From Planctomycetota bacterium (GTDB lineage: Bacteria; Planctomycetota; UBA1135; UBA2386), in NCBI GenBank assembly GCA_965228735.1, contig OZ245838.1:5088001-5152000 (forward strand): 64,000 nt of DNA. Direction: 5' to 3'. The translations under genes and the position numbers were made by a program. Shown in pieces: positions 3,709-64,000 of this stretch. The notes beneath the pieces were generated by a model, which did no database searches, was not told the DNA's origin, and saw only the letters and a program-made list of their open reading frames with translations. Position 1 is the first letter of the stretch, and each line of letters starts with the position of its first letter.

Positions 3709-4131
3709 ATGACGACGAACGGACCCCGCAATCTCGGCGAGCTGCAGCTGGCCATCCTCCACGCGCTCTGGGACCGCGACGAGGCGGCCGTTGCCGAAGT
3801 GCATGCCGCGCTGAAAGATCGCGGCCTCGCCGTGACGACGATCGCGACCATGCTCCGCAAGATGGAGCAGAAGGGGCTCGTGACGCATCGCGAGAACGGG
3901 CGGCAGTTCCTCTATCGCGCCGAGGTCCAGCCCGACCTCGTGCAGCGCAACATGGTCGGCGATCTCGTGTCGCGCCTGTTCGACGGTGATCCGCTCGAGC
4001 TCGTGAACCACCTGATCAAGGCCGGCGACATCGAGCTCGACGAACTCGAAGAGCTGCGCCAGCGCGTCACCGACGCCGAGCAGGGCGATGAAAGCCTCGA
4101 GCAGGACGGGCGCAAGGAGGGGCGGTCGTGA
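3709..4131 (+). CDS. BlaI/MecI/CopY family transcriptional repressor
   Basis: LGELQLAILHALW...TTIATMLRKMEQKGLV...GRQFLYRA...LVSRLFDG winged-helix pattern. Confidence 0.92.
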   Translation: MTTNGPRNLGELQLAILHALWDRDEAAVAEVHAALKDRGLAVTTIATMLRKMEQKGLVTHRENGRQFLYRAEVQPDLVQRNMVGDLVSRLFDGDPLELVNHLIKAGDIELDELEELRQRVTDAEQGDESLEQDGRKEGRS

Positions 4132-5708
4132 TCGCGTCGTTCGATGACGGCGCGACGACGGTGGCGGCCAACTGGCTGCTGACGTTCGCGATCCACTCGA
4201 CGTGCATACTCGGCCTCGCGCTCGCCCTGAGCCACGCGCTGCGCGATCGCTGGATCGCGCTGCAAGAACGGTTGCTCCGACTCTCGCTCTGGGCGGCAGT
4301 CGCCAGCACGACGCTGCAGCTCACGTGCGCGCCGACTGCGTTGCCGCTGTCGTTGACGAGCAACAACGAGAACGTCGTCGCGGTCGCGCCGGCGGGCACG
4401 GTGCTCGGGATCGGAGCGGATGTCGGATTCGACGGCGACGCGGGCTACGCGGGCCACGCGGACCACGCGGGCGGGCCGATCACGCTGCAACCGCTCGCGC
4501 CGATGCCGCACGACGCGAAGGTTGCCACCGACGCGGGCGGCGCGTTCCGGTTCGCCGAGCTGTCGAACTGGCCGCTGACGACCTGGCTCACGGTGCTCGC
4601 GGCCATCTTCGGCGGCGCGGGCGCGCTCTGGCTGCTGCGCACGCACCATCGGCTGCGCGCGATCCTGCGCCGGCGTGAGCCCGAGACCGACGGCCGCACC
4701 CTCGCGGCGGCGGCGAGTGCGGCCGGCGCGATCGGCCTGCGGCAGTCACCGCACGTCAGTCGCAGCGACGAGATCCTCACGCCGATCGCGTTCGGTCTGC
4801 TGCGGCCGGAGATCTGCCTGCCGCGGCGCGCGAGCGCGCTGCCGGACGACGAACTGCGCGCGATGCTCGCCCACGAGATCGCCCACCTCGAGCGGCGGGA
4901 TCCCGTCTGGATGTGGTTCGCGGCCGGCTTGCAGGCGGCGTTCCCGTGGCAGCTCCTGACCGTGTTCGTGCGGCGGCGCTGGAGCCACCTCGTCGAACTG
5001 CGCTGCGATGCGGTCGCGGCGGCACAAACGAGCCCGACGGTCGTCGCGCGTTGTCTGCTCGACGTCGCCGAATGGCTGCGCCCGGCCAAACCGATCGCGC
5101 CGCTGGCGCTCGGCATGGCGGCGCGACCGTCCGCGCTGCGGCGGCGCGTCGACGCGGCCCTGCGACGCGGCGCCGCGGGTCGACTCGGCCGCGGCTGGTC
5201 GATCGGGCTCTCCGGCCTGTCGCTGTCCGCGCTCACGTTCGTCGCTCCGGGCGTCCAGTCGGCGCCGGCCGCCAACGGCGACGGGGTCGCGGACTTCCGC
5301 TTCTTCGGTGTGCCGGTCGAGAGCGGTGCCGACCGCGACGCTGGCAGCAGCGACGCTGGAGTTCGCGGCACTGGAGATCGCGCGCCGGGCGCCGGTGACG
5401 AAGCCGAAGCGATCGCGGCCGGCGACGCGATGAGCGACTCGTTCCCGGGTCGTGATCCCGAGCCCCGGAACGCGCCGGCCCCCGGCGAGGTCGAGCTGAT
5501 GATCGCGGCAGCGATGAGTCAGCTCGAGACCGAGCACCACATGCTGGAGCACGAGCTCCAGCGTCTGCGCACCCGGGCGGCCGCCGCGCCGCCCGAACGG
5601 CGCCAGCTCGTCGCCCCGCTCATCGCGGAGATCGAGCAGCGCCTCCTGATCGTCGACCGGTCGTGCGAACGCATACGCGAACTCCTCGACCGCCGTGCGG
5701 GCCGGTGA
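4128..5708 (+). CDS. M56 family (BlaR1/MecR1-like) membrane metallopeptidase
   Basis: GTGA overlap with repressor; TM helices; PIAFGLLRPEICLP, LAHEIAHLERRD, ELRCD; C-terminal coiled coil. Confidence 0.9.
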   Translation: MIASFDDGATTVAANWLLTFAIHSTCILGLALALSHALRDRWIALQERLLRLSLWAAVASTTLQLTCAPTALPLSLTSNNENVVAVAPAGTVLGIGADVGFDGDAGYAGHADHAGGPITLQPLAPMPHDAKVATDAGGAFRFAELSNWPLTTWLTVLAAIFGGAGALWLLRTHHRLRAILRRREPETDGRTLAAAASAAGAIGLRQSPHVSRSDEILTPIAFGLLRPEICLPRRASALPDDELRAMLAHEIAHLERRDPVWMWFAAGLQAAFPWQLLTVFVRRRWSHLVELRCDAVAAAQTSPTVVARCLLDVAEWLRPAKPIAPLALGMAARPSALRRRVDAALRRGAAGRLGRGWSIGLSGLSLSALTFVAPGVQSAPAANGDGVADFRFFGVPVESGADRDAGSSDAGVRGTGDRAPGAGDEAEAIAAGDAMSDSFPGRDPEPRNAPAPGEVELMIAAAMSQLETEHHMLEHELQRLRTRAAAAPPERRQLVAPLIAEIEQRLLIVDRSCERIRELLDRRAGR

Positions 5709-5782: not shown

Positions 5783-7669
<1,887 letters not shown>

Positions 7670-60822: not shown

Positions 60823-62157
60823 ATGCCAGCGATCCGCCGCCTCGCCCTCGACCGCCGCACGTTCCTGCGCGGCTCGGCCACTGCTATGGCGTTGCCCTGG
60901 CTCGACGCGATGCGCCCCGCGTTGTCGCCGACGCCGGCGCAGCCGCGCCGCGCGCTGTTCATCTTCTCGCCCAACGGCGTCGACATGCCGCGTTGGCGGG
61001 TCGATGGCGAGGGCCCGAGCGCGGAGCTGAACGAAACGCTCGCGGCGCTGCGGCCGATGCAGGATCGCCTGACGGTGCTGACGCGGCTCGCGATCGACGG
61101 TGGGTTCTCCCACGGCGACGGCCCCGGCGATCACGCGCGCGCAGCCGGCTCGTTCCTCACGTGTGCGCATCCCAAGAAGACGGCGGGCGCGGACATCCAC
61201 ACGGGGGTGTCGGTCGATCAGTGGATCGCGGAGCACGTCGGCGGCGAGACCGTGCTGCCGTCGCTCGAGCTCGGCATGTCGCGCGGCCGCAGTGCCGGCA
61301 GCTGCGACTCGGGCTACTCGTGCGCCTACAGCTCGAACGTGAGCTGGCGCACGCCCACGACGCCGGTCACGAAAGAGACCGACCCGCGCGCGGTGTTCGG
61401 CCGGCTGTTCGGCGACCCCGCAATCGCGACCTCGCAGGCCGCGGCGCGCGTGCAGCGGGCCCGCGATCGGTCCGTGCTCGACCTCGTCCTCGCGGACGCG
61501 AAGTCGCTGCAGCGTGAGCTCGGTCGGCAGGACCGCGCGAAACTGGACGCCTACCTGCAAGCCGTTCGCGAGTTCGAGGTGCGGCTCGGCAAGCTCGACG
61601 ACGAGCAGCCCGAGGTCGACCTGCCCGACGGGCTCATGAGCGAGGACCGCACGTATCAACATCGCCTCGGGCTCATGTACGAGATCATCGCGCTCGCGTT
61701 CGCGAGTGACTCGACGCGGGTCTGCTCGTTCATGCTCGGCAATGCCGGCAGCAACCTGAGCTATCGATTCCTCGACGTGCCCGAAGGCCATCACAACCTG
61801 AGTCATCACGGCAAGGACGCGCACAAGCGCAAGCAGATCGCGCGCATCGATCGCTTCCAGCTCGAGCGTTTCACGGCGTTCCTGCAGCGGCTCGCGAGCG
61901 AAACGAGCGGCGACGGCGATCTGCTCTCGCAGTCGCTCGTCGTCTGGGGCTCGGGTATCGGCGACGGCAACCGCCACAACCACGACGATCTGCCCGTCAT
62001 CCTCGCGGGCGAGGGCGGTGGCGCCGCGAAGGGCCGCCGGCACGCCGCGTTCCCGCGCCGCACGCCGATGGCCAATCTGTATCTGTCGATCGCGCGCGCG
62101 ATGGGGCGCACGGACGAGTCGTTTGCGGACAGCACTGGTCCGTTGCCGCTGGCGTAG
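60823..62157 (+). CDS. DUF1552 domain protein
   Basis: Tat-like RRTFLRG...LPWLDAM; PNG, SVDQ, CDSGYSCAY, HHNLSHH, DGNRH..LPVILAG. Confidence 0.92.
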   Translation: MPAIRRLALDRRTFLRGSATAMALPWLDAMRPALSPTPAQPRRALFIFSPNGVDMPRWRVDGEGPSAELNETLAALRPMQDRLTVLTRLAIDGGFSHGDGPGDHARAAGSFLTCAHPKKTAGADIHTGVSVDQWIAEHVGGETVLPSLELGMSRGRSAGSCDSGYSCAYSSNVSWRTPTTPVTKETDPRAVFGRLFGDPAIATSQAAARVQRARDRSVLDLVLADAKSLQRELGRQDRAKLDAYLQAVREFEVRLGKLDDEQPEVDLPDGLMSEDRTYQHRLGLMYEIIALAFASDSTRVCSFMLGNAGSNLSYRFLDVPEGHHNLSHHGKDAHKRKQIARIDRFQLERFTAFLQRLASETSGDGDLLSQSLVVWGSGIGDGNRHNHDDLPVILAGEGGGAAKGRRHAAFPRRTPMANLYLSIARAMGRTDESFADSTGPLPLA

Positions 62158-62270
62158 AGGCGGCGCGTTGGCCTGTCTCGAAGGGAGCGACCGTCGCGGG
62201 CCGTCGGTGACCGCCGATCCGCGTTAGAATCGGCGTCCCGTTCCACCCGTCGACCCTCGAGAACCGAACG

Positions 62271-64000
62271 ATGACCCGCCTCCACTCCGCCGTGTTCACC
62301 GCGGCCCTGTTCGTCCCGCTCGCCGGCGCCTTCGCGCAGGGTGCGGCCACTGATGCGAGCACCACCCCGCGCGACACCCTGCGCGTCTTGCTCGTCGGCC
62401 ACGATCCCGCGAGTCCCAAGGTGCCGTTCCGGCAGCTCGCGAAGGAGCGCACGTTTCGCCTCTACCGCGAGCGCACCGCCGCGTTCGAGGCGCTGCTGCG
62501 CTACCACTTCGAGAACGTGGAGGTGGTCTACGGCGAGGACTACGTGCCGGCGATGTCCGAGACCGCCGATGTCACGATCTTCGACTGCCGACCGAAGGCG
62601 TTGAAAGAGGTCGTGCGCGAACCGAAGTATCGGCCCGCGGAGTACCTGCCGAGCGACTTCGATTCGCCCGCGATCCTCATCGCGGAGAACTCGCCGTGGA
62701 TCGGCGAGCCCGTCGGCAGCAAGTTCGACTGGCTTTGAATGTGTCTCGATGCCCACGCGCACGGGATGCGCGTCGACCACGAGATCTTCAAGACCCCGCA
62801 CGCCGTCGATCTGACCATCGAGGATCGGCCGACGCCGGCGGCCTACGGGCGGTATCACATGGGCGCGACGATGCCGATGTGGCGGGTGCAGACCGAGGGT
62901 TACCTCGAACGCAACGACATGCTCGTCGGCGTCGTGTCGAGCGACTCCGGCTTCCTCGACTCGCCCGACACCGAGTGGATCTCGGGCGGGGTGAACACCA
63001 AGCGACCCAAGGCGGTGGCGCTCGGGCGCCACGGCAACTTCTTCCACTGGGGTTTCGCCGCGTCGCCGACCTACATGACGGCCGAGGCCAAGCTCGTGTT
63101 CGTCAACGCGATCCACTACATCAGCAAGTTCGACGGCCAGGCGCCGATCGCGCGGCGCGAGCCCGGCGCGTCGACCCGTAACCGGATCGAGGACGCGCTC
63201 GCACGGATCTCGGAGAAGGGCTACGCCCGCGAGCTCGAGCAGCACCGCTACTTCGTCGAGCGCATCAAGGAACGCAACGCCGACATCCAGGCGCGGCTCG
63301 ATCGCGGCGAGGACGTCTCCGACACGGAGAAGCGCGTCCTGCAGAGTCGGGTGCCCGGGAAGCCCGGGCGCTTCGCCCCCGTGAAGCGCTACGTCGACGA
63401 CGAGGCGTGGTCCGAGATCCAGGACGACGAGGCCGCGATCCGACGCTACTTCGCGGAGCGGTTGCCGTTCATGCACAACGTGGGCCGCTACCAGCTCGGC
63501 GTCGACGAAGAACTGCGTGACTTCGGCGTCGGCAACGCGGACATCGCCCTGCTCGACCGCGCGGTCGCGGCGCTGCAGAGCGGCGAACGCGCCGACCTCG
63601 CGCGCAAGCTGCTCGAGCGCTACACCGACGAACGGTTCGAGACGGCGGGTGAGTGGGCTGCGTGGCTCGGTGCGAATCGCGAGCGGCTCTTCTTCACCGA
63701 GGTCGGCGGCTACAAGTGGCTCGTCGATACGACGGCGCCGCGATCGGCGAAGCCGTCGCGACAGGTGCGGGCGAGCGCGGCGCGCAAGATCGTCCTGGCC
63801 GACCGCGGCGATGCTGCGTCCGCGCCGACGAAGCTCGAACCGACTGGCGCCGACCCCGTCGTCGGCGCGGCGACGGTGCGCACGAAACAGGACGGCAAGC
63901 AGGAGGTCGTGCTGCGCGTCGCGATCCTCGACGGCTGGCACGGCTACCGCGACGTCCCCGACGGTTCGCCATACGTGCCGATGACCGTCGCGCTCGACCT
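62271..64000 (+). CDS. Putative exported selenoprotein (UxC motif) with a C-terminal DsbD-N-like domain; 3'-truncated by the window
   Basis: Signal peptide; in-frame TGA 62736-62738 in KFDWL-U-MCLDAHAH; frame stays open about 420 codons to the window end; SECIS-like hairpin follows. Confidence 0.8.
62744..62784 (+). promoter_or_regulatory. Candidate bacterial SECIS element
   Basis: Lower stem TCTCG/CGAGA, upper stem ACGCGCA/TGCGCGT, apical loop CGGGA starting 23 nt after TGA. Confidence 0.65.

Follow-up and report, generated by a model that had tools for sequence, protein, structure and literature searches.

In Escherichia coli, the N-terminal domain of DsbD (DsbD-N, or DsbD-alpha) passes electrons between dithiol proteins. 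In Neisseria, DsbD feeds PilB (TlpA-MsrA-MsrB), which is a periplasmic repair relay. Class I glutamine amidotransferases have a catalytic Cys at a nucleophile elbow together with a His-x-Glu motif. The gene described here lies at the end of a 64,000-nucleotide stretch of Planctomycetota DNA (the window) and shares features with each of these systems. Its DsbD-N domain is similar to DsbD-alpha (PF11412; 1l6p, 1jpe) and to the N-terminal domain of ScsB (6c29) in being Ig-like with a cysteine pair near its end, but in this gene it is joined to a soluble ThuA/GATase-like domain, without a transmembrane or thioredoxin domain, and within the family it is found at either end of the protein or as a separate gene. 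As in the PilB-type relays, a catalytic redox domain outside the cytoplasm would have the dithiol domain that recharges it tethered to it or encoded alongside. However, the catalytic domain is unrelated to Msr, and the tethered domain is DsbD-N itself.

Among the selenoproteins in Table 1 of PMC13188914 and in passages of PMC12013277, the nearest entries are the PyrG-related GATase selenoprotein (GxUxG), TsoB, and two UxC families. As described there, these entries have in common with our gene a UGA aligned with Cys, a downstream bSECIS, and a redox-type motif, and the PyrG-related protein also belongs to the same broad fold class, but the motif context and domain order of our gene are unlike each of them. 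No NCBIfam match was found to the GATase selenoprotein (NF004836, GxUxG) or to TsoB (NF045694, UxxxxU); the motif here is U-x-C. A preliminary description of this DNA had placed the protein outside the classical selenoprotein families, and our searches agreed. The read-through protein matched 0 families of NCBIfam 20.0 at E 0.1, and the family is not among the 119 families in Table 1 of the 2026 catalogue (PMC13188914). The main text of PMC13326102 (BSepDB, 111 families), compared as text and not as sequences, does not mention DsbD or Planctomyc-, and the passages of PMC12013277, PMC13745706, and PMC10434189 contain no description of the family. A literature search, with most subscription journals outside its reach, also returned none. 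The sequence comparisons give good support to a new family that uses a known kind of recoding and whose catalytic fold is unusual and function predicted.

The gene and its reading frame

The preliminary description had reported a 155-aa ORF that ends at a TGA, the same frame continuing in GC3-rich codons to base 64000, and an N-terminal signal peptide. All of this was borne out. Translation from 62271 on the plus strand gave 155 codons, the TGA at 62736-62738, and then an open frame to the end of the window at 64000. In the source genome (G000, contig C1), the read-through frame closes at a TAG at the window-equivalent position 64229, which is 229 bases beyond the window. The predicted selenoprotein gene (62271-64000 and on to the TAG at 64229; G000:C1:5150271-5152229, +) encodes 652 residues, and homologues align over residues 1-646. 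Before and after the TGA alike, GC3 is 0.84-0.98 in each full block of 50 codons, and the junction reads DWL-*-M-C-L. A signal peptide was predicted by eye at residues 1-22 (62271-62336, +), where a short basic start, a hydrophobic stretch, and A-F-A resemble a Sec-type signal, and similar hydrophobic leaders are seen at the start of the selenocysteine (Sec) and Cys forms among the homologues. It is true, as was claimed, that no Shine-Dalgarno sequence precedes ATG157, but this does not discriminate between readings since the true start has no obvious one either.

The TGA is not an assembly error, because contigs from three of four runs cover the whole stretch and are unchanged at the TGA, with no TGC or TGT in its place. 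Two of them may be the source of this DNA, and the third (X9) is from a slightly different strain, with seven listed positions that differ elsewhere.

The upstream gene (window 60823-62157, +) encodes a DUF1552 protein (PF07586), and an FG-GAP repeat gene forms the other flank of the predicted selenoprotein gene, opposite the DUF1552 gene. An antisense open frame of 730 codons (window 61806-63998, -) is most likely a shadow of GC-rich coding.

Relatives and the TGA column

Homologues that are single ORFs with Cys at the TGA, mostly in Bacteroidota, had been named in the preliminary description, which also expected gene callers to split the Sec forms. Both expectations held. The TGA column is spanned by 127 of 261 database proteins, all 127 of which have Cys there, and the other 134 begin downstream of the column (51 at +1, 34 at +10, and 21 at +12). 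Because gene callers cut the gene in two, protein searches cannot see the Sec forms. The column was read in 134 domain copies from 132 loci and was TGA in 81, Cys in 52, and Ser in 1; Trp, which had been named as evidence against selenocysteine, was never found. These 134 copies include duplicates (some genomes were fetched twice), and the distinct Sec copies number 71. In our gene, this column is the predicted selenocysteine 156 (62736-62738, +). Two places later is Cys158 (62742-62744, +), the second residue of the U-x-C motif, and Cys occupies that position in 259 of 259 sequences with U or C at 156.

From the GTDB genomes scanned, 63 loci were obtained, with TGA in 11 Planctomycetota records and 1 Bacteroidales record and TGC or TGT in 51. 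At E 1e-10, matches were found in 97 of 301 genomes of the organism's class, some through DsbD-N only, and nearly all of the matches listed that span the core domain contain one TGA. In a sample of the phylum, 83 of 401 matched, mostly through DsbD-N alone, and the core domain with one TGA is present, as we read the table, in about 26. Cys forms were found in named, cultured Bacteroidota (Pedobacter, Sphingobacterium, Pinibacter, and Phocaeicola). A tblastn search of G000 for paralogues gave none, only a weak DsbD-N match.

Sec and Cys forms interleave in the tree, and a pair of copies from one Bacteroidales locus (L069) falls inside a Cys clade, suggesting more than one Sec/Cys switch in the family. 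The direction and donor of a switch cannot be taken from this tree because it was made with FastTree and midpoint-rooted, without a clade test.

Two variants of the motif were seen. In the L113 homologue, S-H-T replaces U-x-C so that both residues are lost, and the loop-encoding A-H-G-L-R stretch is kept. A U-I-C subfamily (L108-L112, L114-L118, and L124-L127) has DsbD-N N-terminal to the core in 13 of 14 members, at or near the cut-off.

Selenocysteine machinery and the SECIS-type hairpin

The machinery for selenocysteine, which the preliminary description had proposed to look for, is present: G000 encodes selA, selB, tRNA-Sec (selC), and a selD with its own in-frame TGA. A search of 50 source genomes of the 63 loci detected selA in 10 of 12 TGA-form genomes vs 2 of 38 Cys-form genomes, a tally of related genomes that are not independent samples. 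The two TGA-form genomes in which selA was not found are both draft assemblies. The sole Bacteroidales record with TGA (L069) is also the sole Bacteroidota-type genome of the 50 with selA.

A bacterial SECIS-type hairpin was located at 62755-62773 (+), with a 7-bp stem, a 5-nt loop, and GG from loop position 2. Its loop is 23 nt after the TGA and its energy is -9.8 kcal/mol, which is within the published consensus as given in section 5 of PMC13188914. For this gene alone, the hairpin had a z of -1.75, 12 of 200 shuffles folded as well, and 35% of synonymous recodings gave an equal hairpin. By our own rule, a hairpin of -5 kcal/mol or lower was present in 27 of 35 TGA forms compared to 1 of 50 Cys forms, and at -7.5 kcal/mol the counts were 22 and 0; 4 of the 35 TGA forms have no hairpin by this rule. 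When 52 TGA forms were compared, 87.7% of cells were paired vs 68.5% in shuffles and 22-45% in slid controls, a score that is favoured because the structure was derived from the same sequences. Covariation was seen in 61 cells changed on both sides, with four of the seven pairs changing on both sides. Of 53 TGA forms, 48 have GG in the loop, compared to 10 of 50 Cys forms. The hairpin of L069 has the same geometry with an unrelated sequence, 17 nt after the TGA. The predicted SECIS is modest in the single gene and clear across the family.

Fold of the core domain

An AlphaFold2 model built from 124 alignment rows (pLDDT 91, pTM 0.88) places a core domain at residues 35-289 (62373-63137, +), followed by a helical region to about residue 486, a disordered linker, and DsbD-N. 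DsbD-N may lie against the body of the protein, as the high pTM hints. The predicted fold of the core, which is the U-x-C domain, is ThuA/class I amidotransferase-like and not a thioredoxin fold. The closest chains by VIA were the ThuA-like 1t0b (Z 13.3, rmsd 3.7, 202 aligned) and 4jqs (Z 13.1, rmsd 4.3, 203 aligned), and class I amidotransferase domains (HisH, GMP synthase glutaminase) scored Z of about 11; the fold matches had Z 11-13 and identity of 8-13%. Foldseek matched the core with GMP synthase glutaminase domains at E of about 1e-4. By sequence, the core had no Pfam or NCBIfam match at E 0.1. The Pfam search at that threshold found no PF06283 (ThuA) or GATase match, and ThuA-like chains nonetheless top the fold search. 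The Atlas gave a weak ThuA lead (score 0.82), and its clusters for a Cys form were only hypothetical or DsbD-domain proteins.

Unlike the ThuA-like and class I amidotransferase proteins whose fold it shares, the core has its U-x-C on a predicted beta-strand (156-159) that is not followed by a helix, and the predicted secondary structure shows no conserved elbow Cys and no conserved His-x-Glu. For this reason, it was not filed as an amidotransferase. Since residues 156 and 158 are on one strand, their side chains probably share one face. The only conserved Cys/Sec positions in the alignment are 156, 158, 633, and 638. Five residues are invariant (R68, E235, W260, N279, and D412) and four are near-invariant (K151, H170, K244, and R253), which suggests a putative substrate site; H170 is present in 98% of the alignment and H164 in 67%. 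The helical middle region (residues ~300-486; 63168-63728, +) is conserved, and D412 and W465 are invariant within it.

The DsbD-N domain and genomic context

The C-terminal DsbD-N-like domain of the preliminary description was recovered as DsbD_N (PF11412) over residues 534-647 (E 2.7e-12). It was the only Pfam match of the read-through protein at E 0.1, and neither a transmembrane domain (PF02683) nor a thioredoxin-like gamma domain was found at this threshold. The first part of the domain is in the window (63870-64000, +), and the C633-x4-C638 pair is past the window end. C633 and C638 are invariant where DsbD-N is present (93 of 124 rows). DsbD-N appears dispensable in cis because the other 31 aligned members do not have the pair. 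The domain is C-terminal in our gene, N-terminal in 13 of 20 distant loci fetched, and a separate upstream adjacent gene in L068 (by Pfam) and L072 (its close homologue). A PDB sequence search matched only DsbD-N and ScsB, and the PDB titles among the fold matches include disulfide-linked complexes of DsbD-N with thioredoxin folds. Database names such as 'protein-disulfide reductase DsbD domain-containing protein' reflect the DsbD-N domain only. Fusions to TlpA/AhpC-TSA domains at either end were found in database proteins P0127, P0149, P0168, and P0243. In another member (L015:4001-6900), a fused TlpA-like domain has a second in-frame TGA in its U-x-x-C site (U-P-P-C), and this member is predicted to be a double selenoprotein.

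In Bacteroidota, SusC/SusD and TlpA-like genes precede the Cys forms. A SusD-like gene was upstream on the same strand in 41 of 50 Bacteroidota-type loci and a same-strand WCxxC ORF was found in 24 of 50; Pfam confirmed representatives of the SusD-like and the WCxxC (TlpA-like) neighbours. ORF clustering over 93 loci gave no neighbourhood common to the Planctomycetota copies; it brought out only a BNR-repeat gene in four loci and, in L022, an adjacent FG-GAP gene. The single membrane DsbD of G000 (L164, minus strand, ~4263914-4264540) has two DsbD-N-like domains, and its gamma domain has an in-frame TGA at the first position of U-x-x-C.

The L069 Bacteroidales locus contains SusC, SusD, and two tandem copies of the family gene (3941-5419 and 5896-7260), which have C-U-x-C and lack DsbD-N. 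A full DsbD gene faces the two copies.

Proposed mechanism and alternatives

We favour, with a probability of roughly 0.6, one gene that would encode an exported U-x-C reductase on a ThuA/amidotransferase-like domain, recharged by its attached DsbD-N. The in-frame TGA is almost certainly decoded as selenocysteine, as the preliminary description proposed; the pairing of TGA with Cys, the Sec machinery, and the SECIS-type hairpin all point to insertion by SelB. The Sec translocon would very probably then export the protein to the periplasm or the surface. Once there, Sec156 would attack an oxidised substrate, and Cys158, on the same strand face, would resolve to a Se-S bond, which is a likely course. 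With somewhat less confidence, C633/C638 of DsbD-N would re-reduce the U-x-C, fed by a thioredoxin-fold donor that could be the gamma domain (U-x-x-C) of the membrane DsbD of G000 or a TlpA-like protein. The weakest step is the substrate. It might be a peptide or protein with disulfide bonds, brought in by the neighbouring SusC/SusD importer in the case of Bacteroidota, but this is a guess from the SusC/SusD context and is on the unlikely side. The SusC/SusD link is borrowed from the Cys forms, since the Planctomycetota copies have no common neighbourhood.

Another possible explanation is that the same selenoprotein uses DsbD-N differently, as a soluble stand-in for DsbD-alpha that serves outside thioredoxin-fold, TlpA-like partners, with the U-x-C recharged directly by TlpA proteins. 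DsbD-N reacts with thioredoxin-fold partners, of which the U-x-C domain is not one, and the titles of solved complexes agree with this. TlpA-like neighbours and fusions are also frequent, and members without DsbD-N exist. However, DsbD-N is tied to the core in three arrangements, which include Planctomycetota copies without a TlpA neighbour, and we consider this explanation improbable. U156 and C158 could instead bind or detoxify a soft metal such as copper or mercury in the envelope, with no disulfide turnover. Two S/Se ligands two residues apart on one strand, with a His nearby (H164 or H170), would suit such a role, and DsbD-N also resembles the N-terminal domain of ScsB, a protein linked to copper stress. 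Yet H162 and H164 vary in the Cys forms, the SECIS contains the codon for H164, and the neighbours are thiol-redox genes with no recurring metal transporter cluster among them, all of which makes metal binding quite improbable.

Readings without selenocysteine were rejected. Two translationally coupled genes, a 155-aa protein ending at the TGA and a 496-aa protein from the next ATG, would explain why an ATG directly follows the TGA here and why many such C-terminal products are in databases. In many Sec forms, however, the codon after the TGA is CTC, ATC, ATT, ACG, ACC, or AAC, and the modelled break would be inside a strand of one folded domain, leaving the second piece with no signal peptide. 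The stop at the column is also always TGA, never TAA or TAG, and exactly on the invariant Cys. A nonsense mutation needs only a single change from TGT or TGC to TGA, and an assembly error or a genome-wide reassignment of TGA to Trp, Gly, or Cys was considered with it; against these, contigs from three studies agree and the same TGA is present in 71 distinct copies from several clades. TGA is the commonest stop codon in G000, closing 2006 of 3005 long coding-like frames; TGG encodes each of the 11 Trp residues of the gene; and among the 67 tRNAs called in the genome the only one with a TCA anticodon is tRNA-Sec. Each of these two groups of explanations is extremely improbable, and a split gene or an error taken together is scarcely less so.

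If the favoured reading of an exported, DsbD-N-recharged reductase is correct, the bacterial selenoproteome gains a widespread family whose predicted redox centre is on a fold that is not known here to carry out thiol chemistry and in which DsbD-alpha serves as an independent module. Because Sec and Cys forms exist side by side, a direct test of selenium's benefit outside the cytoplasm is possible, and the Cys forms of cultured Bacteroidota offer a way to study what thioredoxin-like genes do in SusC/SusD loci. A wider proposal, which we put forward tentatively and hold to be possible though short of probable, is that the gene is the founding member of a large exported selenoenzyme family that has a non-thioredoxin catalytic fold, a private DsbD-alpha recharger, and several Cys/Sec switches. 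This family would be part of an unrecognised selenium redox network in the Planctomycetota envelope (Sec-DsbD, Sec-TlpA, and a U-C FG-GAP protein), and the Bacteroidota Cys version would reduce disulfide-bonded SusC/SusD cargo.

Other candidate selenoproteins

A rough read-through scan of G000, in which 62 of 355 passed and a good share of these are implausible, gave many more candidates that are mostly exported and thioredoxin-like. They include four TlpA-like proteins with U-x-x-C and peroxiredoxin-like, deiodinase-like, and AhpD-like proteins. A candidate of VPGUxxT type 2 was above the NCBIfam cut-off, and several thioredoxin-like candidates are without an NCBIfam family. The candidates on G000:C1 are at 848558, 6546711, 3714212, 3976156, 2539130, 6693895, 1424409, 3235945, 3484699, 6929513, 5497385, 2546238, 4375233, 4985410, 3485980, 5361969, 5285933, and 3014005. 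A small exported protein (L159, G000:C1:2372 and 2123, -), with no NCBIfam match for the part scanned, has two in-frame TGAs in similar G-x-G-U contexts and a hairpin after each TGA.

Exported FG-GAP repeat proteins have U-C in Planctomycetota and C-C in Bacteroidota. No NCBIfam selenoprotein model was found for the U-C proteins, and a literature search on selenoproteins and FG-GAP together gave only unrelated papers; they are a candidate second uncatalogued selenoprotein family. G000 has three of them, at G000:C1:3065085 (+), 5872224 (-), and 406817 (-) (L154, L156, and L157). In L022, a U-C FG-GAP gene (1731-2981) directly follows the family gene, and in L057, L058, L062, and L065 a C-C FG-GAP gene is directly before a Cys-form family gene.
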